Shown here piece after piece: positions 3,961 to 55,828 of a stretch of 64,000 bases of DNA. The notes beneath the pieces are model-generated. The model was not told the DNA's origin. It saw nothing but the letters and a program-made list of their open reading frames with translations, and did no database searches. Each line of letters opens with the position of its first letter. The first letter of the stretch is position 1. This DNA comes from an uncultured Verrucomicrobiae bacterium (lineage in GTDB: Bacteria; Verrucomicrobiota; Verrucomicrobiia; Chthoniobacterales; UBA10450), in the NCBI GenBank assembly GCA_963791565.1, contig CAWBSX010000004.1, positions 372,601-436,600 on the forward strand. Reading direction: 5' to 3'. The translations under genes and the position numbers were made by a program.

Positions 3961-4261
3961 CATCGACCGCCTTTTTCGCGCGGCTAGTGCTGCGCCTAAC
4001 GAATCGTTGCCGGAAGAAATGCCGTTCGGTTTCGACACACGCGTCTTGGCCAATTGGCGCGCATCACGTTCGAGCAATGGAAATGGTTCGCTGGAATTTG
4101 CGCGTTACTTCAAACGCATTGCCATGGCCGCAGTCGTGGTCGCGGCTTGTGCCGGCACGGGTGCCTTTTGGCAACTGCAGCAAAATGATGATCTCGACGA
4201 AGCGACCGGCGGCGCTTACGCCATGGCCGACAGCGCGATAGAAGCGAACACTTTGCAATGA
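3953..4261 (+). CDS. putative anti-sigma factor (single-pass membrane protein)
   Basis: 102 aa with one TM segment (IAMAAVVVAACAGTGAF). Its start overlaps the sigma-factor stop (ATGTCTAA). Confidence 0.5.
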   Translation: MSNIDRLFRAASAAPNESLPEEMPFGFDTRVLANWRASRSSNGNGSLEFARYFKRIAMAAVVVAACAGTGAFWQLQQNDDLDEATGGAYAMADSAIEANTLQ

Positions 4262-4668
4262 CCAAACACTGGAAATTATGGTTAGCGCTCGCGCTCCTTG
4301 TCGTCTTTTTGGCTGGCGGCGCGCTTGGTCTCTGCGCCGGCGTGATCCATGCGCGTCAGGTTTTTTTTGCGCGGCATGGTGGCTTTGCTGGCGGTCGCAT
4401 GCGGGAACATTTGCGCCGCAAATTAGAGCTCACGCCGGAGCAATACGACAAGGTCAGTCCGATCCTCGATCAGACCGAACGGCGTCTGGAAGAGATTCGG
4501 GCGGAGACTGGCCAGCGCGTGCGCGAAGCGATGAATCAATCGCACGATCAAATTGTTCCGCTGCTCAATCCGGACCAACGAAAGAAACTCGACGAAATGC
4601 GCGAACGTCATCGGCACATCATGCGCATGCACGGCGGCGACATGCCGCCCCCGCCCGACGGTCACTAA
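4258..4668 (+). CDS. periplasmic LTXXQ-motif protein (CpxP/Spy-like)
   Basis: N-terminal TM/signal segment, an LTPEQ motif, and a charged helical C-terminus. There is an ATGA overlap with the anti-sigma gene. Confidence 0.55.
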   Translation: MTKHWKLWLALALLVVFLAGGALGLCAGVIHARQVFFARHGGFAGGRMREHLRRKLELTPEQYDKVSPILDQTERRLEEIRAETGQRVREAMNQSHDQIVPLLNPDQRKKLDEMRERHRHIMRMHGGDMPPPPDGH

Positions 4669-4679
4669 TCGACCACTCG

Positions 4680-5672
4680 TTAGGCGAACTCGCGAAAAAT
4701 CTCCGCGCCAATTTCGAACGAGCGCAGCCGCGCCGCGTGATCGAAAATTTGTCCGGTGGCAATTATTTCGTCGGCGCCGGTTTCGTCCAGAATGGATTTT
4801 ACCCGCGTGCGAATGGTCGCGGGCGATCCGATGAGCGCATAACGCATTCGCTCGTCCACGGCCGCGCGCTCCAGCATATTCCACTCAACTTCCATGTCGT
4901 CGACGGGCGGCGGCAATTCGCCGGGCTGGCCGCGCACAAGATTCAAAAACATCAGCTGCGCGGAAGTGGCGATTCGCTGACCTTCTCGGTCGGTCTCCGC
5001 GCCAAAGAGTCCGGCGCCGATCATGACGTAAGGTTTCTGCAACTGCGCCGACGGTTTGAATTCGCTGCGATAAATCTTGAGAGCGACGTGCAGATATTCC
5101 GGCGCGAAATGTGAGGCGAAGGCGAAAGGCAGGCCGAGCTCCGCCGCGAGACGCGCGCTAAAATCGCTCGAGCCTAACAAGTAGAGCGGCACCTTTAAAC
5201 CCGCGCCCGGTACCGCACGCAACCTCTCGTTAGGCGCAGCCGGCTTGAAATAGGATTGCAGTTCGAGAAGGTCTTGCGGAAAAGTCTCGCCGCTGCTGCC
5301 GAGATAACGCCGCAAAGCGCGTGCAGTCAGCTGGTCGCTCCCCGGCGCGCGACCGAGGCCGAGATCGATCCGTCCGGGATAGAGCGATTCCAGCGTGCCG
5401 AACTGTTCCGCGATCACGAGCGGCGCGTGATTCGGCAGCATGATCCCGCCCGCGCCGACGCGAATCTTTTTCGTCGCGCCCGCGACATGACCGATAACGA
5501 TCGACGTCGCCGCGCTCGCGATTCCTGGAAGATTGTGATGCTCCGCTAGCCAGAAGCGATGATAACCCCACTCCTCCGCGTGCCGCGCCAGATCGGCCGT
5601 GTTGCGAAATGCCTGCGACGCGTCACCGCCTTCGACAATCGGTGACAGATCGAGAACGGAATAGAACTGCAT
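4680..5672 (-). CDS. LLM-class (luciferase-like) flavin-dependent oxidoreductase
   Basis: [22 protein letters not shown]...[77 protein letters not shown]. The start is reassigned to the internal ATG at 5672; the track's start at 5759 adds 29 aa that overlap the upstream gene. Confidence 0.8.
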
Positions 5673-6016: not shown

Positions 6017-6903
6017 GCGCCGTGATATTTCCGCCAGTAGCGCACCGCGCCACTCACTGCCATGTAGCTTGGATCGGCCGCCTCGTAGTTGTCGACCTCA
6101 TCCTGCTTCGCGCCATGCTCGCGCAAATCGGTGTGTTCGTATTCAGCAAAAGGCGCAATGAGTTGCGGCTCCTCTTTGCCTTCGCGCAACCGATCGCGAA
6201 ACCATTCCGACCAGCGCCGCACACGCTCTTCCAGTTGGTCGAAATGCATCGCGATCGAATTTTCCACCAAACCAAAATGCGGAAGATAAAGTTTCGCCGG
6301 ATCGAGAACGCGCATCTTCGCGATCGATTCGAGCCACGATTCGACGTGCAATTCCGGCGGGACGAAGGGCGGGATCGGCGGACCGCTGCCAATTCGCACG
6401 CCAGCAATGTCGCCACCGAAAAGGATGTCGTCCCAATGGTAAACGTGATGATGACTGGCGTGACCGGGCGTGGCGATGGCGCGAATGCCTAATGAATCCA
6501 GTTTAACCACATCGCCATCCTGCAGGATCCTGATTTTGTCTTCCGGCACGGGCGCGATTTTTCCCCACAATCGTTCCATGTCGTCGCCAAAAATCCGCGT
6601 GGCGGAATCGACTAATTTTTTCGGATCGATCAGATGCGGCGCGCCGCGCGGGTGCACGTAAATCCTCGCGCCCAATTCCGCGAAGCGCCAGCCTGCCCCG
6701 GCATGATCAAAATGAATGTGACTAAGAAAAACGTGCCGAACCTCTTTTGCTTCCGCCCCAATCCGCCGGAGTTCGGCCACGACGTTCTCGAAAGTGGATT
6801 CGGGACCGGTGTCGAAGAGCGCGATACCGTCCTTCGTTTCGAGCGCCGTCGCCGCAATCACGCCCGGGCATCCCAGCTGTCGCGTATCGAGAACGTGCAT
6901 CAT
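6013..6903 (-). CDS. MBL-fold metallo-hydrolase
   Basis: HxHxDH motif (LSHIHFDHAGAG) in a 296-aa protein. Confidence 0.8.
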   Translation of the reverse strand: MMHVLDTRQLGCPGVIAATALETKDGIALFDTGPESTFENVVAELRRIGAEAKEVRHVFLSHIHFDHAGAGWRFAELGARIYVHPRGAPHLIDPKKLVDSATRIFGDDMERLWGKIAPVPEDKIRILQDGDVVKLDSLGIRAIATPGHASHHHVYHWDDILFGGDIAGVRIGSGPPIPPFVPPELHVESWLESIAKMRVLDPAKLYLPHFGLVENSIAMHFDQLEERVRRWSEWFRDRLREGKEEPQLIAPFAEYEHTDLREHGAKQDEVDNYEAADPSYMAVSGAVRYWRKYHGA

Positions 6904-6951
6904 CGGAAATTCGCGTTCGCACTCTCACGTCATTTGGTCGAAAAGAAAATC

Positions 6952-8022
6952 ATGAGTGCTCTTCGAATTCTCGCGGTTCTGCTCGCCTCGATTGCCATCT
7001 CGTTCGCGGCCGATTATCCGCAGCCGGCCGAAAGTGATTACATCATTAAGGACTTCAAGTTTGCGTCCGGTGAATCCTTGCCGGAATTGCGCATTCATTA
7101 TCGGACTATCGGTAAACCGGATACCGACGCGCACGGGGAAATTCATAACGCCGTGCTGATCACGCACGGCACCACCGGGAGCGGCGCACAATTCGTTAGG
7201 CCGGAATTTGCCGGCGAACTTTTCGGCGCGGGACAGCCGCTCGATGCCGCAAAATTTTTCATCATCCTGCCGGACGGAATCGGCCACGGAAAATCGAGCC
7301 GGCCGAGCGAAGGCTTGCACGCGAAGTTTCCGCGCTACGGCTATCGCGACATGGTCGAAGCGCAGTTCCGTTTGTTAACCGACGGCCTTGGCATCAAACA
7401 CGCGCGGCTCATCATGGGCACATCGATGGGCGGAATGCACACCTGGCTCTGGGGCGAAATGCATCCGGATTTCATGGACGCCCTCATGCCGCTGGCGAGT
7501 TTGCCGACGCAAATTTCCGGTCGCAATCGCGGGTGGCGCAAAACAGTCAGCGACGCTATCCGCAACGATCCCTCCTGGGAAAACGGCGATTACAAGACAC
7601 AGCCGCAGAGTTTGCGCACCGCGGCGGAGATGTTGTGGTTCATGAGCAGCAATCCGGTCTTGCGCCAAACGGAAGCCCCGACTTTGGAGAAGACGGATGA
7701 GGTGCTCGAAAAGTTCGTCGCTGATCATCTGAAAAATGACGACGCGAACGACGTGCTCTATGCAATCGAAGCATCGCGTGATTACGATCCCGGTCCGAAC
7801 CTGGAGAAAATTCGCGCTCCACTTCTCGCGATCAACTCCGCCGATGATCTGATCAATCCGCCTGAGCTCGGAATTCTGGAACGCGAAATCAAACGCGTCC
7901 CGCACGGACGCGCCATCGTTATTCCATTAAGCGACAAGACGCGCGGGCATGGCAGCCACACGCTGGCGGCGTTGTGGAAAGATGAGTTGGTAAAACTACT
8001 GGCCGAATCTACTACTCGTTAG
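6952..8022 (+). CDS. secreted alpha/beta-hydrolase (homoserine O-acetyltransferase-like fold)
   Basis: Signal peptide MSALRILAVLLASIAISFA and nucleophile elbow GTSMGGM. The start is set at the ATG at 6952; the track ORF starts at 6634 but that upstream portion is antisense to the MBL gene. The stop TAG lies inside a copy of the 11-mer word. Confidence 0.75.
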   Translation: MSALRILAVLLASIAISFAADYPQPAESDYIIKDFKFASGESLPELRIHYRTIGKPDTDAHGEIHNAVLITHGTTGSGAQFVRPEFAGELFGAGQPLDAAKFFIILPDGIGHGKSSRPSEGLHAKFPRYGYRDMVEAQFRLLTDGLGIKHARLIMGTSMGGMHTWLWGEMHPDFMDALMPLASLPTQISGRNRGWRKTVSDAIRNDPSWENGDYKTQPQSLRTAAEMLWFMSSNPVLRQTEAPTLEKTDEVLEKFVADHLKNDDANDVLYAIEASRDYDPGPNLEKIRAPLLAINSADDLINPPELGILEREIKRVPHGRAIVIPLSDKTRGHGSHTLAALWKDELVKLLAESTTR

Positions 8023-9103
8023 GCCGAATTCCGCGTTGCGTCACCAGATAGACCGCGAAACTGCCTAACCAGTGGCCACCTTCGTAATGTTCGCCGGTGA
8101 CGGCGGCTAACCCCGCGCGACGATGCGCCGCGGCCGCGGCTTGCAAAGCACCACGGCGCGAATCGTCTTTGGGCAAAACGGAAAGAATTCCTTCCAGCAT
8201 CCAGGCACGGCTTAGATTCAAGCCGTCGAGGTGCGCCAACTTTGGATCGCTCGGATCCGGCGAGACAGCTATTGGCAGCCAGTCGATCTTGGACTCGTTA
8301 GGCAATTGCGGCAGAAAATCCTTCAGCCATTTCGCAAAATCATCCGCTGGAAGAACGCGGCGCATGACGTCCGCTTCCGCCAAACAGGGCGAAAGAAAAT
8401 CTTCCCCGGAAGGTTCGTAAGCCAGGGGCGCGTTCTTGTCGGCGTCGAAAAATTGTCTGGCCTTTGCGCTCACCAGTTTCGCGAACTCTTCGTTCTTAAC
8501 CACGCGCGCGTAGTCCAGCATCAAGCCCAGGGAAAAGGCCGTTTGATTGTGTTCGCCGATGCGAATTGGGTGAGAAAGTTTCGGCAGCCAGTTCGTTAGG
8601 CGCTCAAGCGCGGCCGTTTCGACCGGCTGCAAGTTTGTCGATAATTCGCGTGCCTCCGGATCATCCCATTCGCGCAATTCGGCGCAGAGTTGCAGCAACC
8701 ATGCTAATCCATATGGCCGCTCGAAACTGGCGCGACCTTCGCCGCGCAAATAGGCCGCCTCCTGTTTGAGATTCTCCGCGCTCAAACTCTTGCGCAGTGC
8801 TTCGCGCGCCGCGGCCGCGAAAGGCGCATCGGGAAATGTTCTCGTCAGGCGAACGAGCAACCAATGGCCGTGCACGGAGGAATGCCAGTCGTAACAGCCG
8901 AAAAATGCCGGCGTCAGTTTGCGCGGCGGCGCGACATCGGCGTCGCTGTTCAAATTGTGGCTGATCTTGTTCGGATACTCTTTGGCGACGCAGGCGAGCG
9001 CCAGATCGGCGAAACGTTGCGCGGCTGCGACATCGAATTTCGGCGAAGATTCTTCCGCCATAACCACGAGCGGGAGCAAAAATAGAAATGCGCACGTTTT
9101 CAC
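8012..9103 (-). CDS. secreted hypothetical protein (DUF2891-like?)
   Basis: 363 aa with a signal peptide MKTCAFLFLLPLVVMA and conserved-looking YDWHSSVHGHW. The family assignment is from memory only. Confidence 0.45.
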   Translation of the reverse strand: MKTCAFLFLLPLVVMAEESSPKFDVAAAQRFADLALACVAKEYPNKISHNLNSDADVAPPRKLTPAFFGCYDWHSSVHGHWLLVRLTRTFPDAPFAAAAREALRKSLSAENLKQEAAYLRGEGRASFERPYGLAWLLQLCAELREWDDPEARELSTNLQPVETAALERLTNWLPKLSHPIRIGEHNQTAFSLGLMLDYARVVKNEEFAKLVSAKARQFFDADKNAPLAYEPSGEDFLSPCLAEADVMRRVLPADDFAKWLKDFLPQLPNESKIDWLPIAVSPDPSDPKLAHLDGLNLSRAWMLEGILSVLPKDDSRRGALQAAAAAHRRAGLAAVTGEHYEGGHWLGSFAVYLVTQRGIRPNE

Positions 9104-9758: not shown

Positions 9759-10478
9759 GTGGAGACGAAGACACATATTCTAATCACCGGTTCGACGCGT
9801 GGCATCGGCGCCGTCACGCGCGACGAATTGAAGAAACAGGGCGCTCGTGTCATCGGTCACGGTTCGCGCGCAGCCGGAGCGGAAGAAATCCCCGCGGATC
9901 TCTCGCAGCCCAATGCAGCGGATGCACTGTGGCGCGAAGCGATCGAACGACTCGACGGCCGGATTGACGTCCTGATCAATAATGCCGGCATTTACGAACC
10001 TGTGTCCGTTGGAGAGAGCACGGAAGTTTGGGAAGCGCGCTGGAATCGCACCATGCAGATCAACCTCCAGGCCGCAGCGGATCTTTGCCGACTGGCCGTT
10101 TCGCATTTCCGATCGCGCGCCGGAGGCGGTCGCATCGTCAATGTCGCGAGTCGCGCGGCCCATCGCGGTGATTCGCCGGAGCACTGGCATTACGCGGCGT
10201 CGAAAGCGGGCTTGATCGCTGTGACAAAGTCGATCGCGCGTGGATTCGCGACCGAAGAAATCTACGCCTTTGCCGTCGCGCCCGGTTTCACCATGACTGG
10301 AATGGCGGAAGATTACCTAACGAGTCGTGGAGGTGACGCGATCCTGAAAGAGATACCATTACGTCGCGTGAATTCCGCGGAAGAAGTTGCCAACGCGATC
10401 GTTTATCTCGCTCTGCACGCTCCAGCCGCAATGACCGGCGCGGTGATTGATATCAATGGCGCGAGTTACGTGCGCTGA
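9759..10478 (+). CDS. SDR-family short-chain dehydrogenase/reductase
   Basis: TGSTRGIGAVT (TGxxxGxG) and YAASK (YxxxK) are present. Confidence 0.9.
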   Translation: METKTHILITGSTRGIGAVTRDELKKQGARVIGHGSRAAGAEEIPADLSQPNAADALWREAIERLDGRIDVLINNAGIYEPVSVGESTEVWEARWNRTMQINLQAAADLCRLAVSHFRSRAGGGRIVNVASRAAHRGDSPEHWHYAASKAGLIAVTKSIARGFATEEIYAFAVAPGFTMTGMAEDYLTSRGGDAILKEIPLRRVNSAEEVANAIVYLALHAPAAMTGAVIDINGASYVR

Positions 10479-10481
10479 TTT

Positions 10482-10492
10482 GCCTAACGAGT
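10482..10492. repeat. representative copy of the hyper-abundant 11-mer GCCTAACGAGT (plus-strand reading), 4 nt after the SDR gene stop
   Basis: Exact match. See findings for the full set of about 90 copies. Confidence 0.9.
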
Positions 10493-10947: not shown

Positions 10948-10980
10948 TCGTGGCGTTGCTAAACGCCTAACGAGTCCTGC

Positions 10981-13443
10981 GTGAACACGTTCCTGAAGGA
11001 TCTGCAGTATGCCGCGCGCATGCTGCTGAAAAATCCTGGTTTCAGCGCCATCGCGGTCATCGCTTTGGCGCTCGGGATCGGTGCCAACACCGCGATCTTC
11101 AGCGTGGTCAGCGCAGTTCTGCTGCGTCCGCTGCCTTATCCGCAGCCGGAACAAATCGCCGCCGTCTGGGCGGCGGACAATACCAAAGGACACGCGAAGA
11201 CTTCGTTTTCGTTTCCGGATTTTGCGGACGTGCGCGCGCAGAACCAGGTCTTCAGCGCGATGGCGGCGTACGACGATTCCGACATGACCGCGACCGACCG
11301 CGGCGCGGATGCCGAGCACATGCACGGCCTGCTGGTGACGTCGGATCTTTTTCGTGTCTTAAACGTGAATCCGATTCTCGGACGCGGCTTCACTGCCGAT
11401 GACGACAAACCCGGCGTGCGCGTCGTCGTTTTGAGCTACGACCTTTGGCAACGCCGGTTCGGCGGTGATCGCAACGTTCTCGAAAAAACGATCACGTTGA
11501 ACGAAACGCCGCATCAAATCATCGGCGTCATGCCGCCGACGTTCCGTTTTCCAATCGAAAAAACGTCCGCCGTTTTCTGGACTTCCGCCGCAACGCAATT
11601 TGAAGCCGCGCCCGGCAGCACCGAGACCTCAGCTTCGCAGCGCGGCATGCACTTCTTGCACTCCATCGCACGCCTCAAACCGGGTGTGAGCGCGGCACAG
11701 GCGGAAGCGAACACGAAGACCATCATGGCTTCGCTGGCCACGCAATATCCCGATTCGAACAAGCGCTTCGATTCCTCGCGCGTCGTCGCGCTTCTCTCCG
11801 ATCTAACTACCGATGTCCGTCCCGCGCTCGTCGTTCTCCTCGCCGCCGCCGGCTGCGTCTTGCTGATCGCATGCGTGAACGTGGCCAACCTTCTTCTCGC
11901 CCGCGCCACTTCGCGCGAAAAGGAAATGGGAATTCGCGCCGCGCTCGGCGCGAGTCGGGCGAGAATTTTCCGGCAGCTCCTCACCGAAAGCGCCTTGCTC
12001 TCGTTAGGCGGTGGCGCCGCCGGGATGTTGCTGGCCGTTTGGGGAACAGCCGGCCTCGCCGCGTTGCTTCCGCAAAATTTTCCGCGCGCAGAGGAGATCG
12101 GACCCGACCTGCGCGTGCTCGCGTTTACCGCACTCGTTAGTCTTTTTACCGGCCTCCTTTTCGGACTCGCCCCGGCCTGGCGCGTTTCGCGGCCTGATGT
12201 TGTCAGCGCGCTCAATGAAAGCGCGCGCGGCTCGAGCGAAACCGCGCGCGGTCGCCGCCTGCGCGGAATTCTTGTCACCGCCGAAATGGTGCTCGCGTTT
12301 GTCTTGCTCGTCGGCGCCGGGCTCTTGATCCGCAGCTTTTGGCAATTGCAGAAAGTGCCGATCGGCTTTGATCCAAACCACGTCATGACCGCGAGTGTTT
12401 CGCTGCCCGAGGGCGACGGCGGACCGGAAATCACCAAGCGCGACGAACAATTTTACGTGCAGCTGATGGAACGGGCCAACGCCATTCCCGGCGTCCGTTC
12501 GGTCGCGGCGATCAGCCCATTGCCCTTGAGCGGCGCGGATTGGCGAACCGGGTTCGACATCGCCGGCCGTCCCACCGCGAAGTCCGATCGAGCGCTGAGC
12601 GCGGCGCGCGTCGTTACGCCGGGTTATTTCGGCACGATGGGAATTCCGCTGCGCAAAGGCCGCGATTTCGATCCGCGCGATAAGTTCGAATCGGCCGGCG
12701 TTGTCATCGTGAACGAATCACTCGTTAGGCAATATTTTCCTAACGAAGATCCAATCGGGAAAAGAATCACACCGCAAATTTCACTGGATGTGCGCGAACC
12801 GATCGAGCGCGAGATCATCGGCGTGGTCGGCGATGTGAAGGCGCGCAAGCTAACCGCGGAAAATATGGCCGAGTTGTATCTGCCGCACACGCAGGCGCCG
12901 AGCGGCAGCATGACGATTGTCGCGCGCACCCATATGGAACCGCAGGCGATCCTGCCTTCGCTGCGCGGCGCGGTTGAAAGTTTGAACAAAGATCTGCCGC
13001 TCTACGAAACGCGGACCATGCAGCAATATCTTGATCGCGCCGTCGCGCAGCCGCGCTTGAACATGACACTGCTCATCGTTTTCGCGGGTGTGGCCATCGT
13101 CCTCACCGCCGTCGGAATTTACGGCGTGATGGCTTACTCGGTCGCACAACGCACCCAGGAAATCGGCATTCGCATGGCGCTCGGCGCGCAACGTTTCGAT
13201 GTTCTGCGACTCATCGTCGGACAAGGCGCGCGCTTGGTTGCGCTCGCGATGGTCATCGGCGTCGGCGCTGCGTTCGCCATGACTCGATCAATCGCCAGTC
13301 TGCTCTACGGCGTCGGGGCGACAGATTTCCCCACACTTTTCTCGGTCGCGCTTCTTCTCGCACTCATCGCGCTCCTGGCTTGCTGGTTGCCGGCGCGCCG
13401 CGCGAGCGGGATTGATCCGATCACCGCGCTACGCACGGAATAA
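10981..13443 (+). CDS. ADOP-family duplicated FtsX permease (MacB-like periplasmic core domain x2), copy 1
   Basis: 820 aa. N-terminus [43 protein letters not shown], and a C-terminus of the same kind ending ...[17 protein letters not shown] start. Confidence 0.85.
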
Positions 13444-13502
13444 TTCGTATGCGAGAAGAAGCGCGGCGCGACACTCTGGGTAGCGCAAGCGTCTCGCGCG
13501 CC

Positions 13503-13535
13503 GGTTTCGGTGTCTCGCCGAAACGAACTTTTTTT
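13503..13535 (+). terminator. intrinsic terminator between ADOP copy 1 and copy 2
   Basis: Stem GTTTCGG (13504-13510) / CCGAAAC (13518-13524) with a 7-nt loop, followed by a T7 run at 13529-13535. Confidence 0.55.
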
Positions 13536-13575
13536 CGAGCAAAGTCCACATCGCCTAAGGAGAGGAGAAACTTCG

Positions 13576-15987
13576 ATGAATAATTTTCGCTACGCACTTC
13601 GCCAGTTGCGTAAGTCGCCCGGGTTCACTTTTGTCGCTGTACTAACGCTTGCGCTCGGCATCGGCGCGAACACCGCGATCTTCACTGTCGTTCACGCAGT
13701 TTTGCTTTCACCGCTGCCGTTCCCCGACGCCGATCGCATCGTCGCGGTGCAATCGCGCAACCTGCAGGAGAATCTCAAAGGGCTGGGCTTCGCGCCCGCC
13801 GGATTCCGCGATGTCGAGAAACAGGTCACCTCTTTCGAGGCCATCGCGGCTTATCGCTATAACTACGACAATCTCACGCGCGTGGAGAAACCAACTTCGG
13901 TCAGCGGAAGTCTTGTCACGCAAGATTACTTTCGCGTGCTCGGCGAGAAGGCGCTGATCGGGCGCACTTTCACGCCCGAAGACGCCGCGGCCAACGCAAA
14001 ACCGACCGTTCTTCTGAGCTATGATTTCTGGCAGAAACAATTCGGCGGCCGGCGCGATCTCGTCGGCCAAACGGTCACGCTCGATGACGTTCCGCACGAG
14101 GTCATCGGCGTCATGCCGCGCACTTTCAAAGATCCATTTGGCATCGCCGCCGAGTGGCGACTCTTTCCGAACGAAGGCGGCGAGAACTTCGTCGCCAATG
14201 CGCGTTTCTGGGCCGTCATCGGACACATGAAAGCTGACGTACCAATGTCCACTGTTCAGGCCGAGCTCGGTACAATCAGCGCGCGACTCGCGCAGAGCGA
14301 TGCGAAATTCTACAAAGGCTGGGACATCAATCTGAGTCCGTTGCGCGATCAGGTCGTCGGAAATTATCGCGAAGGTTTACTGCTGGTGGTGGGCGCCGCG
14401 CTGGTCGTGTTGCTTATCACCTGCGCCAATGTCGCGGGTCTGCAATTTGTTCGCGCCTCGACACGACAACGCGAAGTCGCGATTCGACTCGCTCTTGGCG
14501 CGAGTCGCGGGGCGGTCGCGCGCGGACATCTGATCGAATCGCTGTTGCTCGTCGCGGTCGGTGGACTCGGGGGTGTGTTGCTCGCGAGTTGGGGATTGGA
14601 TGTGCTTCTCGCGAGCCTGGCGCGCGATTGGATTCCGCGCAGCGATGAAATCGCGCTCAACACGACGGTGCTTTTGGTCACCGGCGTGACCGCATTAGTA
14701 ACCGGAATTCTCTTCGGACTTTTCCCCGCATGGCACGCCACGCGCATCGACGCGATCGATTCGTTGCGCGACGGCGGCAAAGGGGGCTCGGCCGGTCTGC
14801 AATCGGTGCGACTGCGCGGCGCGCTCGTCATCGCACAAATCGCGCTCACGCTCGTGCTGCTGGTTTGCGCGGGACTGGTCTGGAAGAGTTTCGCCGCGAT
14901 CACGCGCGTGAATCCCGGGATTCAAATCGAGAACACGCTCAGCATGGTCATCACGCTCGCGCCCACGCAATACGACACGGGTCCCAAACGCATCGACTAT
15001 TTTCGTCAGCTTCTCGAACGCACAAGTGTGATTCCGGGAGTGGAATCAGTCGCGTTCACTCAGACGATGCCGTTCACGTGGGGAATCCCGGCGACGTTTT
15101 CTGTTTACGGCTCTTCGAACGACGAAAACAAATTGCCACCGGCCATCTACGATTCCGTTAGTCCATCGTATTTTTCGACGATGCACATTCCGCTGCTGGC
15201 TGGCCGGGTATTTGCGGAAACCGACAACGCGCAATCGCCCGGTGTGATCATGATCAGCCAATCAACGGCGAAGAAATTTTTCCCGAATGAAGATCCGATT
15301 GGAAAGCGTCTGATTCTTCCGCCGGGCCGTCAGCAACCGAATCCCGTGCCGCTCGAAATCATCGGCGTGGTCGGCGATGTGCCGCGCGATGGACTCAACG
15401 CCGACACGCCATACCAGGTCTACGCGAGTTTGAATCAGCGTGCGTGGGCCTTCGCCACATTGCTTGTGCGCTCGCCGCTTCCAGTCGAAACACTCACGCA
15501 GACAGTTCAGCGCGCGATCTGGGCCTTCAATCCGGAGCAGACAATTTCCAACGTCGCGCCGGTGCGCACGCTGGTGAAACAAAGCCTGACGCAGCCGCAA
15601 CTTTATCTCACGCTCTTCAGTCTCTTCGCGCTCCTCGCATTGCTGCTCGCCAGCATCGGTCTTTACGGGCTCATCGCTTACAGCGTCGCGCAGCGCACGC
15701 GCGAATTCGGCATTCGCTTCGCACTCGGCGCGCAGATTGGCGATGTGCTGCGACTCGTTCTCGGACAAGGCGCGCGGCTGACCGCGCTTGGCCTTGTCCT
15801 TGGTTTGCTGGGCGCGGCGGGAGTCGCGCGTCTCATGCAAACACTTCTCTTTCATACCGCCGCTTACGACCCGCTGGTCTTCGGCGGTGTTGTGTTAGTA
15901 CTCGCGGTCATCGGCCTTCTCGCCGCGTTGTTGCCAGCGTTGCGCGCGACCAAGGCCGACCCAGTCGCCGCTCTCCGCACCGAATAG
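13576..15987 (+). CDS. ADOP-family duplicated FtsX permease, copy 2
   Basis: The start is set at [39 protein letters not shown], which aligns with the N-termini of the paralogues. An AAGGAG sits 10 nt upstream. The track start at 13510 lies inside the terminator hairpin. Confidence 0.85.
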
Positions 15988-15997
15988 GAACGCCAAC

Positions 15998-18430
15998 ATG
16001 AACACACTGCTTCAAGATTTTCGTTACGCACTGCGCAAGCTCGTGCAGCAGCCCGCCTACACCATCATCGCCGTGCTCACGCTCGCGCTCGGCATCGGCG
16101 CGAACACTGCGATCTTCAGTGTGGTCAACGCGGTGCTTTTACGCCCGCTGCCTTATCCGGAACCTGATCGCATCGTTTATCTCAGCGAAGTAAACGGCGG
16201 GACGAACAGCGCGATCGCATTTCCGGATTACATCGATTGGCGCAACGATGCGAAATCGTTCGAGCATCTCGCACTCTCGCGCACGGAATCGCGAAACCTC
16301 AGCGGCATTGCCGGTCGTGAACCGGAGCGCGTCTCGGTCTCGTTCGTCACTGCGAACTTCTTTCGCGTGATCGGCCTCAATCCACAAATCGGCCGCACCT
16401 TTACGGACGACGAAGACAAGCCGGGCGCGCCGGCGCTGGTCGTGCTGAGCGATCGTTTGTGGGACCGCGTCTTCAATCGCGACCCAAACATCATCGGTCG
16501 CGCGGTGACGTTTCACGGTCAGCCGTTCACGGTCACGGGCGTGATGCCGCGGGAAATGGATTCGCCGCATGGCGTGGACGCGTGGTTCTCGGTGATGCGA
16601 CGGAGCGCAAACGCCGCCTGGCAGAATCGCGCCAATCATCCAATGCTCTTCGCCTGGGGCCGGCTGAAGAAAGGTATCACGGTCGAGCAGGCGCGAAGCG
16701 AGATAAAAACCATCGCGGCGCGATTGGAAAAAACTTACCCGGAAACGAACGCGGGCACGAGCGGCGAAGTAAAACCGCTGCTCGATAACTTGTTAGGCAA
16801 CTACCGCACAAGTCTCACGCTGTTGCTTTGCGCGGTCGCGCTCGTCCTCCTCATCGCTTGCGCGAATCTCGCCAATCTTTTCGCCGCGCGCGGTGCTTCG
16901 CGTTCGCGTGAGTTTGCCATTCGCGCCGCTATTGGTGCATCGCGCTTAGGAGTCGTTAGGCAATTGCTCATTGAAAGTTTTTGTATCGCGCTGATCGGCG
17001 GCGCGCTCGGTTTGCTCTTTGCCATTTGGGGACGCGACGCTCTTGTCGCCTTCGCGCCGGGTAATGCGCCGCGCTTCGAAGGCATCGGCTTCGATGCGCG
17101 CGTGCTCGGTTTCACTTTTCTGCTGGCCAGCCTGACGACAATTCTTTTCGGCCTCTGGCCCGCATGGCAGGTCGCGCACGCCGACATTCAAACCGCACTT
17201 CAAGCCGGTTCATTCGGTAGTTCCGAAACAAAAACAGCGCGGCGTAGTCGCGATTGGCTGGTCATCGCCGAAGTCGCGCTCACACTTTTGTTGCTCAGCG
17301 CCGCCGGTCTTGTTTTGAAGAGCTTCGCCAAGATGCAATCGGTCGCGCTCGGTTTCGAGCCGCGCGGACTTCTCACCGCGCGCATCGATTTGCCCTACAC
17401 GAAATACACCGATCACGAAAAGGTCGCGAACTTCGACAACGCATTGCTCGACGGCGTGCGGCGCTTGCCCGGCGTGCAAAACGCAGCCGTTGGCGCGAAT
17501 CCTCCGATGCTGAGCGGATGGCAGCTGAATTTTTTACCCGAAGGCGCGCCGCCGACTGATCCGAGCCAGCAGCCATCCGCCGATTCGGAAGTGATCGCGG
17601 GTGATTACTTCGCTGCGCTGCAAACAACATTGATCCGCGGCCGCACCTTCAACGCCGGCGACACCAAAGATTCGCCGCCGGTCGTGATCATCGATCAAAC
17701 GTTGGCCGAGACAGCTTTCCCGAAACAGGATCCGTTAGGCAAACGTCTCGCCATCGGTGGTGCCGACGGGAACAGCGAGGACATCATTCTCTATGAAATC
17801 GTCGGCGTGGTCGCGCACATGAAACTGCGCGGATACGACGACGTGCCAGCGATACCGGCATTCTTTTTTGCCGAAACGCAAACGGCGCGAACGAATCAGG
17901 TATTACTCGTTAGGGCGAGCGGCAATGTGAAGTCGCTCGAGAGATCGATTCGCGAAGTCATCAATCGCGTCGATCCAACACAGCCGGTTTTCGACTTCCG
18001 CGCCATGGAAGAACGCGTGGCCGAAACCTGGTCGACGCAACGTCTGCTTTCATTTCTTCTCGCGATTTTTGCGGGTCTCGCGTTGCTCCTCGCCGCAGTC
18101 GGCTTGTATGGCGTGCTTTCTTACACTGCATTGCGACGCTTACGCGAAATGGCGGTGCGCATCGCATTCGGCGCGCGACCTGCGGACATCCGCGGTTTGG
18201 TTTTCGGTCACGGCTTCCGTTTGTTCGGCGTAGGAATCGCGCTCGGCGCAATCGGCGTTGCTGGCTCTGCGCCCGTCATCCGCAGTTTTCTTTTCGGGGT
18301 CGCAACCGCTGATCTGCAGATTTTTGCCGCTGTCGGTATTCTGCTCTCGTTAGTCACCGTGCTCGCCGCGTGGTTACCCGCGCAACGCGCCTGCCGCGTG
18401 AATCCGATCATTGCGCTGCGCGCAGAATAA
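15998..18430 (+). CDS. ADOP-family duplicated FtsX permease, copy 3
   Basis: 810 aa, [43 protein letters not shown]. It is 10 nt downstream of copy 2. Confidence 0.85.
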
Positions 18431-18433
18431 TTC

Positions 18434-18444
18434 GCCTAACGAGT
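18434..18444. repeat. copy of GCCTAACGAGT in the 18-nt spacer between ADOP copies 3 and 4
   Basis: Exact match. The same extended form GCCTAACGAGTCCT also occurs at 10965-10978, upstream of ADOP copy 1. Confidence 0.9.
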
Positions 18445-18448
18445 CCTA

Positions 18449-20863
18449 ATGGAAACAACCCTTCGCGACATTCGCTATGGCTTGCGCACCCTGCGCAAAA
18501 ATCTCGGCTTCACCGCGGTGGCGGTGGTCGCCCTCATGCTCGGAATCGCGAGCACGACCGTCATCTTCAGCGTGATCAATGGCGTCCTGCTCCGCCCGCT
18601 GCCTTATCCGGACGCGGATCGGATCGTCACCATCTCGCAGACCATCGCCGCTTCGAATATTGCGCGCGGAGCGACAGCGCCGGCGAATTACGTCGATCTG
18701 GCGGCGCAGTCCGATGCCTTCGTCGCCATGGCTGCGTCGCGTGGCTGGCAGGGAAATCTCACCGAGGGCGACATGCCCGAACGTCTGCGCGTGACCATGA
18801 CGACGACGAACTTGTTTCAAGTTTTTGCGAGCGCGCCGATCCTCGGTCGCGGTTTGCAAGCGGCGGATGAACAGCCCGGTCGTTCGAATGTCGCCGTGCT
18901 TAGTCAGGGTTTGTGGGAACGGAAATTCGGGAGCGATCGCAACATCATCGGTCGCGAAATTCGTTTCGATGGCGAACCGCGCACCATCGTTGGCGTGATG
19001 CCGGCCAGTTTTTCACCGGATGATTACGGCGAACTTTGGGTGCCATCGCCTTTCGGTGTGCCAACGCATGCCTTGCGGCCGACGCAAGACCCGCGCCGAA
19101 TGCGCGACAGCAATTATCTCGATGTTTATGCGCGTCTGAAACCGGGCGTGACTTTGCAGCAGGCGCAAACGCAGTTGAGCGCGGTCATGGCGCGTTTGGA
19201 AAAAGATTACCCCGACGACAACATGGGCGAAGGCGTCGCCGTTACGCCGTTGCAGGAAGACAAAGCGGGCAGCATGCGGCCAGCGCTGCTCATGCTGGGC
19301 GCGGCGGTTGGATTTCTTCTTCTGATCGGTTGCGCGAACGTGGCGAACCTGCAGCTGGCGCGCGCGGCAGCGCGGTCACGCGAAGTTTCCATTCGCGCCG
19401 CGCTGGGCGCGGATCGCTCACGACTCGTTAGGCAACTTCTGACCGAAAGTATTTTGCTCGCGCTGATTGGCGGCGCGCTGGGAATTCTGGTCGCGGCCTG
19501 GGCCGTGCCGGTTTTGATGGCGATGGCGCCGCCCGCCTTGACAAGCTTCAAGGAAATTACACTCGATCGCGGCGTGCTCTTGTTCAGCCTGATCATTTCA
19601 TTACTAACTGGCGTGCTCTTCGGGCTGGCACCGGCTTTTCAAGCCTCATCGGCGAATCCGAACGACTCGTTAGGCGAAGGCGAACGCGGCAGCACGGCCA
19701 GTCACAGCCGCAGCCGGTCCGTTCTGATCGCGACGGAAGTTGGACTAACACTGGTCCTGCTCATCGGCGCGGGATTGCTCATCAGAAGTTTCGGGAAGGT
19801 CACCAAAGTCGATCCCGGTTTCACGCCGGAGAACTTACTTGTCTTTGACGTCGGCCTTCCGCCCGCGACGGACGACGCGCACAATCTCGCCTTTTATCAG
19901 CAGGTGGTGGAACGCGTGCAGGCTGTTCCCGGTGTGATGCGCGTCGGCGCGGTCAGCCGGTTGCCGTTCTCCGGCGGTAACAGCGGCCGCTCCTTCAATC
20001 TTCCCGGCAGCGACAAAAACTACGACGCCGACATTCGCGTGAGCACGCCGGATTATTTTCGCACGATGAACATTCCGCTTTTGCGCGGACGCGTCTTTAC
20101 TGAACAGGACACGAAAGATTCTGTGCGCGTTTGTGTGATCAACGACGCCACCGCGCGGATGGCGTTTCCCGGCGAAGATCCGGTCGGCAAATTCGTCGTC
20201 AATTTCGGACCGGACAGCGAGAAGCTGCAGATCATCGGCGTGGTCGGAAACATCCGGCATCTCGCGCTCGACACCGCGCCGCATCCGGAACTCTATCAAC
20301 CACTCGGCCAGGCAAAATGGCCGCGCATGTTCATCGCAATGCGAAGCGCCGTGGGAAATTCGCTCGCGTTATTACCGGCCGCGCAGAACGCGGTCTGGAG
20401 CGTCGATCGCAACGTCGCGCTCGGTAATGTACGCACGATGGAAGACACGATCGCGCGGACGTTGTTGAAGCGAAAATTCACCATGACGCTGCTGACAATT
20501 TTCGCCGGCATCGCCGTCGCGCTCGCCTCGATCGGTTTGTATGGTGTGATGTCGTATTCCGTTTCGCAACGCACGCGTGAGATCGGAATTCGCATGGCGC
20601 TCGGTGCGCAACGTGCGGATGTGCTGCGACTGGTCGTTAGGCAAGGGATGTTACTAACCGCGATTGGCGTCGGGCTTGGGCTGGCCGGTTCGCTTGGCCT
20701 AACGAGACTTATCTCGAGTTTGCTCTTTGGTATCAGCGCGACGGATGTCAGTACCTTCGGCGCGGTTTCGATTTTGCTGCTCGCGATCGCGTTACTGGCC
20801 TGCTGGCTGCCGGCGCGGCGCGCGAGTGGCGTCGATCCGATGGTGGCGCTACGAGCGGAGTAA
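18449..20863 (+). CDS. ADOP-family duplicated FtsX permease, copy 4
   Basis: 804 aa, METTLRDIRYGLRTLRKNLGFTAVAVVALMLGIASTTVIFSVI. The 18-nt spacer from copy 3 contains a copy of the 11-mer word. Confidence 0.85.
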   Translation: METTLRDIRYGLRTLRKNLGFTAVAVVALMLGIASTTVIFSVINGVLLRPLPYPDADRIVTISQTIAASNIARGATAPANYVDLAAQSDAFVAMAASRGWQGNLTEGDMPERLRVTMTTTNLFQVFASAPILGRGLQAADEQPGRSNVAVLSQGLWERKFGSDRNIIGREIRFDGEPRTIVGVMPASFSPDDYGELWVPSPFGVPTHALRPTQDPRRMRDSNYLDVYARLKPGVTLQQAQTQLSAVMARLEKDYPDDNMGEGVAVTPLQEDKAGSMRPALLMLGAAVGFLLLIGCANVANLQLARAAARSREVSIRAALGADRSRLVRQLLTESILLALIGGALGILVAAWAVPVLMAMAPPALTSFKEITLDRGVLLFSLIISLLTGVLFGLAPAFQASSANPNDSLGEGERGSTASHSRSRSVLIATEVGLTLVLLIGAGLLIRSFGKVTKVDPGFTPENLLVFDVGLPPATDDAHNLAFYQQVVERVQAVPGVMRVGAVSRLPFSGGNSGRSFNLPGSDKNYDADIRVSTPDYFRTMNIPLLRGRVFTEQDTKDSVRVCVINDATARMAFPGEDPVGKFVVNFGPDSEKLQIIGVVGNIRHLALDTAPHPELYQPLGQAKWPRMFIAMRSAVGNSLALLPAAQNAVWSVDRNVALGNVRTMEDTIARTLLKRKFTMTLLTIFAGIAVALASIGLYGVMSYSVSQRTREIGIRMALGAQRADVLRLVVRQGMLLTAIGVGLGLAGSLGLTRLISSLLFGISATDVSTFGAVSILLLAIALLACWLPARRASGVDPMVALRAE

Positions 20864-20966: not shown

Positions 20967-20971
20967 TCTGC

Positions 20972-21424
20972 CTAACGAGTCAGTTGTAAACGCCAGTTGA
21001 GCTTGCCGTCGGCGGCGATGTCGAGATAAGCGACGCTGGCCGGCGCGCCACGATTCGGCCGCGTCACGCATCCGGGATTAAGGAATAAGACATCGTGAAC
21101 ACGCTCGTACCGCGGTACGTGCGTGTGACCATGCAGAACGACGTCGACATTTTTCGGCGAGTCGTCAGGCGGAATATGAACAAGGCGAAAGCAGAGTCCG
21201 TTTCGTTTCAGAAGAACAACGAGAGGCCACTCGGTCTCACTGTCGCAATTTCCCCGGACAAGCGTCAGCGGCGGCCCGGCAGCGCGAATTTCCTCAAGCA
21301 AGCTCGGCGCGCAGACATCGCCGAGATGCCAGATTTCATCCACGTCGTCGGCCAATCGATTGAAGTTCGGCGGCAGATGATTGTGCGTGTCGGCCATGAC
21401 CAGGACGCGAATCGATTTTCCCAT
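20972..21424 (-). CDS. metallophosphoesterase (YfcE/MJ0936-like phosphodiesterase)
   Basis: VMADTHNHLPPNF...GDVCAPS...VRGNCD...GHTHVP. Confidence 0.8.
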   Translation of the reverse strand: MGKSIRVLVMADTHNHLPPNFNRLADDVDEIWHLGDVCAPSLLEEIRAAGPPLTLVRGNCDSETEWPLVVLLKRNGLCFRLVHIPPDDSPKNVDVVLHGHTHVPRYERVHDVLFLNPGCVTRPNRGAPASVAYLDIAADGKLNWRLQLTR

Positions 21425-28500: not shown

Positions 28501-28750
28501 CGTTTTCAAATTACGCGAAGGCCGGCCGAACGTGCTCGATCGGATCAAGAACGGCGACATGCAGTTGATCATCAATACGCCGAGCGGAAAAATTCCACGC
28601 GAAGATGAAATCAAAATGCGCAGCGGCGCGCGCACATTGAAAATTCCGATCATCACGACGATGCGCGCGGCGCAGGCCAGCGTACACGGCATTGCTTCAC
28701 TGCAGAAAAGCAGTCTGCAGGTTAAGACGTTGCAGGAATATCACCTGTAA
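25540..28750 (+). pseudogene. carB: carbamoyl-phosphate synthase large subunit (carB) disrupted by at least 12 single-nucleotide frameshifts
   Basis: All CarB segments are present and colinear in three alternating frames. These include [30 protein letters not shown]..., [54 protein letters not shown]..., [24 protein letters not shown]..., [20 protein letters not shown]..., [47 protein letters not shown]..., EMKSTGEVMGIDADLGLAYAKAQ... and ...LIINTPSGKIPREDEIKMRSGARTLKIPIITTM. The frame switches near 25990, 26152, 26795, 26885, 26955-27210 (about 4), 27625, 27717, 27850-28010 (about 3), 28240, 28345 and 28495. No large deletions. Confidence 0.85.
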
Positions 28751-34506: not shown

Positions 34507-34537
34507 TCTGAACATTCTGCCTAACGAATGGTTACAA

Positions 34538-35019: not shown

Positions 35020-35030
35020 GCCTAACGAGT
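35020..35030. repeat. copy of GCCTAACGAGT filling the rpoA-rplQ intergenic spacer
   Basis: Exact match between the rpoA stop (35032-35034) and the rplQ start (35011). Confidence 0.9.
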
Positions 35031-47587: not shown

Positions 47588-47601
47588 GCAGCTACTTCGC
47601 T

Positions 47602-55813: not shown

Positions 55814-55828
55814 CGAGTAGTCGAATCC

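Follow-up and report, generated by a model that had tools for sequence, protein, structure and literature searches.

Gene-end accumulation of a hyper-abundant 11-nucleotide word in soil Chthoniobacterales: a probable by-product of a candidate uptake-sequence analogue

In the 64-kb stretch of DNA analyzed here (the window), copies of the 11-nt word ACTCGTTAGGC pile up at the ends of genes, and this pile-up is very probably a passive by-product and not punctuation or a terminator. The 11-mer is the form taken locally by a 9-nt core, TCGTTAGGC; in an uncultured soil clade of Chthoniobacterales (Verrucomicrobiota), this core is found along the whole chromosome and on either strand, at approximately one copy per kb. 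As an overall explanation we lean, by a little, toward by-product accumulation at gene ends combined with an uptake-type drive.

An abundant word and the genes that end on it

Thirty-seven exact copies of ACTCGTTAGGC were found in the 64 kb (19 on the + strand and 18 on the − strand), where 0-0.03 would be expected (0.00 in shuffles), together with 39 one-mismatch copies against about 1 expected. The 76 copies lie 843 nt apart on average and make up 1.3% of the window sequence. Their spacing in the window looks Poisson (CV = 0.95), and the even spacing reported for USS was looked for among them and was absent. The word is non-palindromic, its reverse complement being GCCTAACGAGT. Mismatches in the variants fall at word positions 1, 2, 4, 10, and 11, with only one at position 5, and positions 3 and 6-9 are invariant among one-mismatch copies. 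Immediate flanks are A-rich, with A at −3 in 29/37 exact copies and A two bases past the word in 25/37, and no sequence is shared beyond these 1-3 weakly preferred bases. No RNA family in Rfam matched at the word.

Genes were called with a periodic-Markov model for which long ORFs of the window and of related loci (644 kb) served as the training set. It gave 57 genes in the window (89% coding), in agreement with Pfam on 50 ORFs. Fifty-eight of the 76 copies are wholly intragenic. The original prediction had confined in-gene copies to the frames that avoid the embedded stop, two per strand, and all four of these frames are indeed in use (LVR 8, SLG 4, PNE 8, LTS 6). Relative position within genes shows no trend for the copies of the window (p = 0.74); for pooled sets, this test is confounded by orthologous sites in common. 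A peptide-repeat reading of the copies was rejected.

The word has no polarity with respect to replication or transcription: the 76 copies divide 40:36 between the + and − strands, and the exact in-gene copies of the window comprise 12 sense and 14 antisense. Over-representation of a short non-palindromic word could point to a polar signal for recombination or translocation, as Chi and KOPS are, yet such a role is hardly credible here. Strand bias is missing over the 64 kb and also elsewhere (13:9 in L051 and 6:9 in L001), there is no GC-skew switch in the window that might mask a change of polarity, and the word is longer than known sites and several-fold denser.

Seven genuine genes are terminated by a TAG or TAA embedded in ACTCGTTAGGC or a one-mismatch copy, and Pfam support extends near the C-terminus in all seven. 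The exact copy at 8014-8024 (+) supplies TAG 8020-8022 as the stop of an alpha/beta hydrolase gene (6652-8022, +). It terminates both convergent genes: on the other side, the DUF2891 gene (8012-9079, −) runs through the copy as ..P-N-E and then stops at a TAG (8014-8012) whose T is paired with the copy's first base. Exact copies likewise provide the minus-strand TAA 4682-4680 that ends a luciferase-like monooxygenase gene (4680-5672, −; copy 4675-4685, +, which is also 6 nt past the stop of the gene at 4258-4668, +), the TAG 20974-20972 of a metallophosphoesterase gene (20972-21424, −; copy 20970-20980, −), the TAG 31056-31058 of sodC (30510-31058; copy 31050-31060, +), and the TAA 50536-50538 of a PEP-CTERM protein gene (49756-50538; copy 50533-50543, −). 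The last of these copies is followed in direct tandem, right past the gene, by the one-mismatch copy ACTTGTTAGGC at 50544-50554 (−). One-mismatch copies end the remaining two genes. ATTCGTTAGGC at 47579-47589 (+) carries TAG 47585-47587, the stop of an SRPBCC gene (47072-47587), and ACTCGTTAGAC at 55808-55818 (−) carries TAA 55811-55813, the stop of a C-terminal fragment of kynA (tryptophan 2,3-dioxygenase; 55490-55813). A further one-mismatch copy, GCTCGTTAGGC at 27659-27669 (+), has a TAG that seems to terminate an ORF at 27209-27667, but this candidate eighth case was discarded as an artefact because the ORF is a fragment from within carB, which is frameshifted.

Every word coordinate given in the original prediction was confirmed. 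It had listed five genes as stopping on the 11-mer, and all five do so, but only the copies at 8014, 31050, and 50533 are exact; the SRPBCC and kynA stops are real and fall in one-mismatch copies. Missing from it were the exact stop-supplying copies at 4675 and 20970, both of which end minus-strand genes.

Besides the seven, three genes have a stop codon that starts with the last T of the word. The exact copy at 57881-57891 (−) lies in the P-N-E frame at the extreme end of an amidohydrolase gene (56748-57893); it had been described as immediately preceding the TGA, and its last T also serves as the T of that stop codon (57891-57893). The one-mismatch copy at 34540-34550 (+) encodes, on the minus strand, the final rplQ codons (..T-N-E), and its last T opens the TAG stop at 34540-34538. 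Another one-mismatch copy (34519-34529, −) is 10 nt past the rplQ stop and forms a close inverted pair with the copy at 34540.

Other copies lie close to gene boundaries. The exact copy at 10482-10492 (−) is 3 nt past the stop of a short-chain dehydrogenase gene (9759-10478), and the one at 10965-10975 (−) precedes the first MacB/FtsX-type (ADOP) permease gene (10981-13443), 5 nt ahead of its GTG start. The third and fourth permease genes are 18 nt apart, and this gap is filled by the exact copy at 18434-18444 (−), which begins 3 nt past the stop at 18430 and finishes 4 nt ahead of the start at 18449. An exact copy at 35020-35030 (−) lies between rpoA and rplQ, 8 nt ahead of the ATG (35011) with which rplQ starts, and one at 62982-62992 (−) sits in the spacer of two convergent genes, 11 nt past the stop of an FAD-oxidase (62970) and 3 nt past that of an S9 peptidase (62996). 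The exact copy at 58703-58713 (−) had been placed after a hypothetical gene; the present gene call instead puts it within the final 8 codons of the ORF at 58182-58727, with the next gene (58727-60163) starting 13 nt further on. The word claimed for the start of the ABC ATPase gene (2001-2720, −) is there, at codons 3-6 (G-L-T-N), as the one-mismatch variant ATTCGTTAGGC (2703-2713, +).

Enrichment at stop codons

Under a null of uniform placement, word centres within ±10 nt of a stop are enriched approximately 10-fold in the window, with 14/76 observed versus 1.3 expected (p = 1.6e-10), and the corresponding count for starts is 0 versus 1.4 expected. Enrichment near stops was replicated in related loci (10 versus 1.5 expected) and in independent soil contigs (5 versus 1.0). 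The soil-contig tests used 33 contigs with at least two core copies, the ascertaining copy being left out. Metagenomes were scanned with the pattern ANNACTCGTTAGGCAA, ANNACTCGTTAGGCRA having too few specified bases, and the scan gave many single-copy chance matches in low-GC contigs.

The picture changes once the comparison is made among TAG and TAA triplets. Copies of the word account for 17% of the TAG triplets of the window and for 10% of its TAA triplets. TAG stops lie inside copies in 5/22 cases versus 71/433 for other TAGs (p = 0.30), and TAA stops in 3/21 cases versus 73/707 for other TAAs (p = 0.38); when pooled with 12 related loci, the same test gives p = 0.34 for TAG and 0.81 for TAA. 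Eight stop-providing copies were observed where 5.8 are expected given the TAG/TAA triplets, and the word supplies approximately 14% of the TAG/TAA stops of the window. The original prediction had proposed weighing the frequency of the embedded stop against expectation, and on the window and the 12 loci the conditioned comparison yields no excess. It had also named, as the outcome that would speak against it, uniform positions relative to gene boundaries once the ban on in-frame stops is allowed for; this is what is found in spirit, but a modest gene-end enrichment persists. Copies that give no stop number 12 within ±10 nt of stops versus 2.8 expected (window and related loci), and starts are not enriched, an asymmetry that relaxed constraint explains only loosely. 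The stop-free sister word AAGATCGACA, described below, is 3-4 fold enriched within ±20 nt of starts and stops alike, and the remaining gene-end copies of ACTCGTTAGGC are a modest enrichment that matches it.

TAG accounts for 39% of stops here and 29% in word-free relatives; the word as the cause of this difference is suggestive only.

A role as functional punctuation, with the word ending translation or transcription at gene boundaries, could call on the 10-fold enrichment under the uniform null, on the seven real genes that stop on its TAG or TAA and the three more whose stops begin with its last T, and on sodC, the extended tail of which gets its stop from the word. We regard it as very improbable. 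The wholly intragenic copies lie in stop-free frames with sense and antisense in balance, the excess at stops vanishes once conditioned on TAG/TAA, and AAGATCGACA is just as abundant and likewise enriched near gene ends although all six of its frames lack a stop. These observations speak against the alternative raised in the original prediction, that the word is a punctuation or termination-associated element.

Nor does the word behave as an intrinsic terminator, a candidate that was rejected: it is not self-complementary, has neither hairpin nor T-run, and is found after genes in both orientations. The pair after rplQ (34519/34540) is the only close inverted pair in the window, and close pairs of any kind number six among 103 hits. 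The real rplQ terminator, a hairpin plus T-run at approximately 34503-34474 on the minus strand, is a separate element downstream of both copies. Gene-end copies in 1-20 kb were checked against terminator-like sites and showed no overlap. The word had been likened to DUS and USS placed near terminators; the likeness of the word itself holds up, but the placement in terminators is not seen.

The by-product reading of the gene-end copies would work as follows. In-frame copies collect at stops because the two strands of ACTCGTTAGGC carry TAG and TAA, respectively: this register would be lethal inside a gene and tolerated only where a stop is needed, and a stop that already supplies three bases of the word would help such copies to gather exactly at stop codons. 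C-terminal tails and the few bases past the stop are probably the least constrained sequence of an 89%-coding genome, and the other registers gather at gene ends too because constraint is lowest there. For annotation, the lesson is that a hyper-abundant word containing TAG or TAA automatically provides a proportional share of stops, with no termination signal implied.

Origin, conservation and distribution of the copies

Comparison with orthologues shows that copies are created by point substitution at tolerant sites and not by insertion. Alignments at orthologous sites contain no insertion or deletion; CGCAGCTGGTG in relatives, for instance, corresponds to ACTCGTTAGTC here. Metallophosphoesterase orthologues end in ..PLR followed by TGA, TAA, or TAG and the protein here in ..LTR-TAG, with its length unchanged; the orthologues end at the same position, and the copy at 20970 therefore arose by substitution. 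In L001, the closest relative, sodC terminates approximately 8 codons earlier, and the word here is therefore the next available stop of an extended tail. The SRPBCC copy at 47579 is conserved in L051 and L005, and L003 has GTT CAC TGA in its place. Orthologues of kynA have ..V followed by TAA at the same codon, and the remainder of the word is absent.

These alignments bear on a mobile-element origin, with the copies as footprints or miniature forms, which is scarcely plausible. The copy number is high and there is one direct tandem pair (50533/50544), but the flanks share nothing beyond the weakly preferred bases, copies stand in frame in conserved genes, and no association with a transposase was found; the gap-free orthologous alignments rule the reading out. 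A REP/MITE-type repeat was rejected on the same alignments, on the lack of a flank consensus, and on the 58/76 copies in genes.

Established copies are preserved at the DNA level, synonymous positions included, as the alignments show. Thirteen of 16 copies are perfectly conserved in L001, compared with 30% of all 11-mers (p = 4e-5), and third-codon-position identity with L001 is 0.958 in copies versus 0.743 elsewhere. Relative to L051 and L006, which are more distant, third positions in copies are more conserved than average (0.75-0.81 versus 0.58-0.61) and first positions are less conserved (0.71-0.73 versus 0.84-0.85); second positions are lower relative to L051 only (0.81 versus 0.89) and equal for L006 (0.91 versus 0.91). 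The same comparisons show that copies occupy protein positions whose conservation, judged by codon position, is below average.

The density of TCGTTAGGC in its clade ranges from 0.05 to 1.0 per kb, with densities similar to that of the window in L051, L001, L002, L021, and soil contigs, and the core has a lineage-dependent 5' extension (AC-, TC- or other). Udaeobacter-like relatives carry the unrelated word AAGATCGACA at up to 1.6 per kb, which contains GATC and TCGA. Both words are present in some genomes (L034 and L047), and the Chthoniobacter outgroup has neither. The core TCGTTAGGC is lost or wholly replaced between lineages at approximately 75% DNA identity. A survey of lineage-specific hyper-abundant 9-mers gave two clear words only.

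The force preserving the copies may be a molecular drive of the kind associated with DUS in Neisseriaceae and USS in Pasteurellaceae. Under this model, word-bearing DNA would be preferred by a putative receptor that belongs to a competence system and is located at the cell surface or in the periplasm, and homologous recombination would then spread the word after biased uptake. By analogy with those systems, we give an even chance to ACTCGTTAGGC being a DUS/USS-like uptake-sequence analogue outside the Proteobacteria. The wider claim, that TCGTTAGGC and AAGATCGACA would be the first DNA uptake-enhancing sequences outside the Proteobacteria and that some genomes are in mid-switch or have two specificities, is offered more tentatively, at slightly below even. 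Against the uptake reading, inverted pairs inside terminators of the DUS/USS type are essentially absent. We know of no precedent among known uptake-sequence families for two unrelated hyper-abundant words in one genome, and their coexistence in L034 and L047 would, under uptake, need two specificities or a recent switch. A Pfam search of the 64-kb window found no competence or pilin genes. Literature searches returned only primers for either word, and nothing relevant on uptake sequences or competence in Verrucomicrobiota, Udaeobacter, or Chthoniobacter; as far as the literature was searched, an uptake-sequence analogue in this lineage is unreported.

Synonymous-site conservation would be equally expected of a selected protein-binding site. 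One alternative, which we consider unlikely, is that the word forms a dense array of sites for an abundant chromosomal protein (nucleoid-associated, condensin-loading, or replication/repair), maintained by weak per-site selection and piling up at gene ends as the same by-product. Strand symmetry, an invariant core with flexible flanks and the conservation at synonymous sites all fit double-stranded recognition, and the two words in L034 and L047 are easier to accommodate with two proteins than with one uptake receptor. Per-site selection would, however, be hard put to hold approximately 1% of a genome as exact words, and loss or replacement at approximately 75% DNA identity is unexpected for a core chromosome-organizing function. 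To our knowledge, no nucleoid or segregation protein relies on near-exact 9-11-mers that number in the thousands and lie inside coding sequence at approximately 1/kb.

Sequence-biased repair, gene conversion, or a methylation-linked process like that proposed for HIP1, with no role in uptake, seems improbable. It would account for copies that arise by substitution and for conservation independent of coding, and the GATC and TCGA in AAGATCGACA are typical methylation/restriction cores. Known biased-repair systems such as very-short-patch repair, however, shape 4-6-mers, and ACTCGTTAGGC is an asymmetric 11-mer at approximately 1000-fold excess, non-palindromic and with no obvious methylation core. 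No word-specific methyltransferase or repair gene was identified.

If the uptake reading is true, the word would reveal self-preferring natural transformation in some of the most abundant and least tractable lineages of soil, the Chthoniobacterales and Udaeobacter-like bacteria, and would provide a genomic marker of natural transformation for lineages that resist cultivation. Word-positive, word-negative, and double-word genomes at approximately 75% DNA identity form a comparative panel in which the receptor could be sought by phylogenetic profiling. The known uptake sequences are confined to two families of Proteobacteria, each of them animal-associated (10.1101/2025.10.24.684340; PMC13020248). 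Adding an independent third system would make self-biased DNA uptake a recurrent evolutionary solution.

Comparison with known repeated words

Chi and KOPS are, like ACTCGTTAGGC, over-represented non-palindromic chromosomal words. They differ in a strong co-orientation with replication, in a length of 5-8 nt, and in being several-fold rarer than ACTCGTTAGGC, which is equally frequent on the two strands. HIP1 (GCGATCGC, cyanobacteria) is similarly hyper-abundant in and outside genes and conserved beyond coding needs. It is an 8-nt palindrome linked to methyltransferases, whereas ACTCGTTAGGC/TCGTTAGGC is an asymmetric 9-11-mer. Intrinsic terminators and REP/BIME-type repeats resemble the minority of copies that lie just past genes, but the word has no stem-loop, T-run, or shared flanks, and three quarters of its copies are intragenic.

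The closest parallels are with uptake sequences, although membership by descent was rejected, ACTCGTTAGGC being unrelated to GCCGTCTGAA or AAGTGCGGT and its host, judged by the closest genome loci, a member of the Chthoniobacterales. A bias toward gene termini has been published for the Pasteurellaceae USS and its complement (PMC2346458). USS (AAGTGCGGT) and ACTCGTTAGGC have this bias in common, and both occur mostly as single intragenic copies in tolerated frames at poorly conserved protein positions, have A-rich or AT-rich flanks immediately beside the word, and originate by point mutation. They differ in sequence and taxon, and the uptake role of ACTCGTTAGGC is putative; moreover, the USS core is without a stop on both strands, and the pile-up exactly at stops is specific to ACTCGTTAGGC.

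The Neisseriaceae DUS (GCCGTCTGAA and its dialects) is recognized by the minor pilin ComP. It is a 10-12-nt non-palindromic word present at approximately 1/kb on both strands and making up at most approximately 2% of the genome (10.1101/2025.10.24.684340; PMC3630211). The word described here differs in that it is unrelated in sequence, belongs to the phylum Verrucomicrobiota and would act through a putative receptor. Approximately half of DUS lie in predicted terminators, whereas ACTCGTTAGGC is almost without inverted pairs and is not placed inside terminators, and a second unrelated word, AAGATCGACA, coexists with it in some Chthoniobacterales genomes. In the remaining features the two are alike: ACTCGTTAGGC is also non-palindromic and present at approximately 1/kb on both strands, occurs within and between genes and is barred from stop-containing frames, has clade-specific dialects that differ mainly at the word edges, and is conserved above the surrounding DNA.

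The word and its abundance

The 64-kb window contains 37 exact copies of the 11-mer ACTCGTTAGGC, which carries TAG on one strand and TAA on the other. They divide 19:18 between the plus and minus strands; dinucleotide-preserving shuffles of the window yielded 0.00 exact copies. One-mismatch copies number 39, with approximately 1 expected, and two-mismatch copies 27, with approximately 16 expected. Single mismatches are confined to positions 1, 2, 4, 10, and 11, apart from one case at position 5. No one-mismatch copy varies at positions 3 or 6-9, which identifies TCGTTAGGC as the conserved core. Flank preferences of the exact copies are weak, with A at −3 in 29/37 and A two bases 3′ of the word in 25/37. 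Together, the 76 exact and one-mismatch copies cover 1.3% of the window, with a strand balance of 40:36 and a spacing that is not distinguishable from random (CV 0.95). Their density is 1.14 copies per kb in coding and 1.57 in intergenic sequence (p = 0.35).

For comparison, 80 related loci were found with a phosphoglucomutase of the window; all belong to metagenome-assembled genomes of Chthoniobacterales, Udaeobacter, or Chthoniobacter (Verrucomicrobiota). The nearest by DNA, L001, is 88% identical across 19 kb. A periodic Markov model trained on long ORFs from the window and its relatives called 57 genes, with 89% of the window coding. Several essential genes are split by frameshifts into 2 to 4 ORFs in differing frames: rpoA (35032-36072), carB (25540-28750), kynA (55013-55813), and an S9 peptidase gene (47602-49684). 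Such splits in housekeeping genes suggest indel errors of long-read metagenome assembly rather than pseudogenes. They generate false gene ends, for example that of a carB fragment ending at 27667, so the apparent stop in the copy at 27659 is an artefact. Four successive genes of ~810 codons for MacB-PCD/FtsX duplicated permeases (ADOP type) occupy 10981-20863 (+), the first assigned by Pfam and the other three by size and the original annotation; the spacers between them are 10-66 nt by ORF boundaries, and the word fills one. A related FtsX permease and ABC ATPase are found at 1-2720.

Gene ends and stop codons

The original prediction held that at least five genes terminate on the word, and its coordinates were all correct. 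All five listed stops do lie in the word, but the SRPBCC and kynA stops come from one-mismatch variants. Among the 57 called genes, exact copies supply the stops of five, with the genes hosting gene-end copies confirmed by Pfam: the alpha/beta hydrolase (TAG 8020-8022), sodC (TAG 31056-31058), the PEP-CTERM protein (TAA 50536-50538), and two minus-strand genes absent from the original list, encoding a luciferase-like monooxygenase (copy 4675) and a metallophosphoesterase (copy 20970). Three further genes end on the word in the frame read as P-N-E, where its last T is the first base of the stop codon: DUF2891 at 8014, rplQ at 34540, and the amidohydrolase at 57881. The DUF2891 and alpha/beta hydrolase ends both lie in the copy at 8014, so that a single copy closes both convergent genes. 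The other intergenic copies are 1-17 nt away from a stop, as originally described. Between sodC and an SPFH/Band-7 gene (31349-32653) there is a c-di-AMP riboswitch (Rfam RF00379, 53.7 bits, E = 1.2e-9) at 31114-31265 (+).

Measured against uniform placement, the proposed gene-boundary bias is borne out at stops. The centres of 14/76 copies lie ≤10 nt from a stop codon, with 1.3 expected (p = 1.6e-10), and 18/76 lie ≤20 nt away, with 2.5 expected; 0/76 are within ±10 nt of a start (1.4 expected). The stop enrichment is repeated in 12 related loci (10 copies versus 1.5 expected) and, with the ascertaining copy left out, in 33 independent soil contigs (5 versus 1.0 expected), where 4/5 supply the stop.

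The decisive control compared gene-terminating TAG and TAA with all other TAG and TAA triplets. On both strands of the window, 76/455 TAG triplets (17%) and 76/728 TAA triplets (10%) are inside the word. For TAG, this applies to 5/22 stops and 71/433 other triplets (p = 0.30), and for TAA, to 3/21 stops and 73/707 others (p = 0.38). Pooled with related loci, the values are 8/75 stops versus 148/1689 others for TAG (p = 0.34) and 3/70 versus 153/2504 for TAA (p = 0.81). From the triplet counts, 5.8 stop-supplying copies would be expected; 8 are observed, or 7 without the carB artefact. Stop triplets are embedded at about the same rate as others, so genes do not recruit the word as a stop by preference, and its use as a stop codon is very probably a passive by-product. 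The in-frame register of the word is impossible within a gene except at its end, and an existing stop codon already gives 3/11 bases of the word. TAG is unusually frequent as a stop in the window (22 TAG, 21 TAA, and 13 TGA in called genes), and in relatives without the word it still accounts for ~29% of stops (209 TAG, 240 TAA, 263 TGA); the word explains only part of TAG stop use.

Enrichment also extends to near-stop copies whose TAG or TAA is not the stop (12 versus 2.8 expected, window and related loci) and, among in-gene copies, to the last five codons (4 versus 0.85 expected). The core AGATCGACA of an unrelated, stop-free sister word, AAGATCGACA, is concentrated 3-4 fold in the ±20 nt around stops and starts alike, with 30% of its copies intergenic versus 11% of the sequence. 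The gene-end enrichment of non-stop copies matches that of AGATCGACA, a pattern expected if constraint is relaxed at gene ends.

Maintenance at the DNA level

The word acts at the level of double-stranded DNA. Exact in-gene copies divide into 12 sense and 14 antisense, spread over all four stop-free frames (LVR 8, SLG 4, PNE 8, LTS 6). Orthologous sites align with the copies free of gaps, and relatives without the word differ by point substitutions. At the metallophosphoesterase end, relatives have ..P-L-R followed by TGA, TAA, or TAG and the window has ..L-T-R followed by TAG, at equal length. The SRPBCC end is ATT CGT TAG in the related loci L051 and L005 and GTT CAC TGA in L003. For kynA, ..V and TAA are kept in orthologues, with changes confined to downstream bases, and sodC ends on the word ~8 codons beyond the L001 stop. 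These frame, strand, and alignment results, together with the control word, contradict three readings: the originally suggested punctuation or termination element, which is unsupported and very improbable, and the still more remote proposals that the copies are mobile-element footprints or that the word is a polar Chi/KOPS signal, both of which we regard as extremely improbable.

Copies are conserved beyond their surroundings: 13/16 are identical in L001 (p = 4e-5 against the 30% seen for 11-mers in general), and identity at third codon positions is 0.958 within copies and 0.743 outside them. In the comparison with L051 and L006, which are more distant, copies keep 0.75-0.81 identity at third positions (0.58-0.61 elsewhere), whereas their first positions (0.71-0.73) are below the average of 0.84-0.85; their second positions are lower (0.81 versus 0.89) only in the L051 comparison. 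Low first-position and high third-position identity show that the copies occupy protein regions under little constraint and yet are preserved as DNA. Exact copies 52192, 53017, and 53209 (−) have ~25 nt in common on either flank (tgccggaaataatgttgc...ACTCGTTAGGCcgccgatggt); because they fall within internal repeats of an astacin/beta-helix protein gene (50808-53375), they count as duplicates and not as independent copies. Copy 39751-39761 (+) in scpB (39239-39871, −) is retained at the orthologous position in 10 or more genomes, not all of them from the word-rich clade, with ACTCGTTCGGC or ATTCGTTCGGT in other relatives; the site could be ancient, or the encoded peptide could favour it.

Lineage distribution and uptake sequences

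On the phosphoglucomutase tree, TCGTTAGGC is found in one clade at 0.05-1.0 per kb, densest in the window, L051, L001, L002, and L021, and the word is absent from the Chthoniobacter outgroup. The Udaeobacter-like clade carries the sister word, its core reaching 1.6 copies per kb; both words are found in L034, L047, L042, and L022. The 5′ extension of the core varies by lineage, with AC in the window and TC in L011. The sister word has the form AAGATCGACA(A/T), seen in L034 (21 kb), L047 (16 kb), L030, L056, L062, and L073, among others; it is equally distributed between strands (16:13 in L034), has no stop in any frame, and often adjoins start codons, e.g., AAGATCGACATG or AAGATCGACAATG. Alternatively, selection could maintain the copies as an array of sites bound by a chromosomal protein. 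This would account for why they are conserved as DNA and why two words coexist, but it is without precedent at such density and exactness and fits poorly with rapid word turnover between lineages, and we consider it unlikely. Somewhat less likely again is a HIP1-like origin, in biased repair or a process linked to methylation, which is a possibility above all for the sister word with its GATC.

The DUS of Neisseriaceae and USS of Pasteurellaceae are 9-12-nt words at ~1 per kb, up to ~2% of the genome, found on both strands in and outside genes, avoiding stop frames, occupying permissive protein positions, and forming dialects (10.1101/2025.10.24.684340; PMC3630211). Pasteurellaceae uptake sequences are biased toward gene termini (PMC2346458), and the papers cited here describe uptake sequences in these two families only (10.1101/2025.10.24.684340; PMC13020248). 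We found no literature on either word, or on competence or uptake sequences for Verrucomicrobiota, Udaeobacter, or Chthoniobacter, and no receptor or competence genes in the 64-kb window. The likeness to DUS and USS, originally drawn from placement near terminators, holds for the word as a whole in length, abundance, strands, stop-frame avoidance, permissive positions, and dialects; it fails for terminator placement. About half of DUS and USS copies are located in terminators, often as inverted pairs. In contrast, the only close inverted pair of the window word follows rplQ, and the genuine hairpin-plus-T-run terminator there stands apart from it, just downstream. We give about even chances to an uptake drive that may lie behind the word. 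The word is a strong uptake-sequence-like feature of soil Chthoniobacterales, apparently undescribed; as judged by these comparisons, it is not a member of DUS or USS by descent and behaves like an independent analogue of them.
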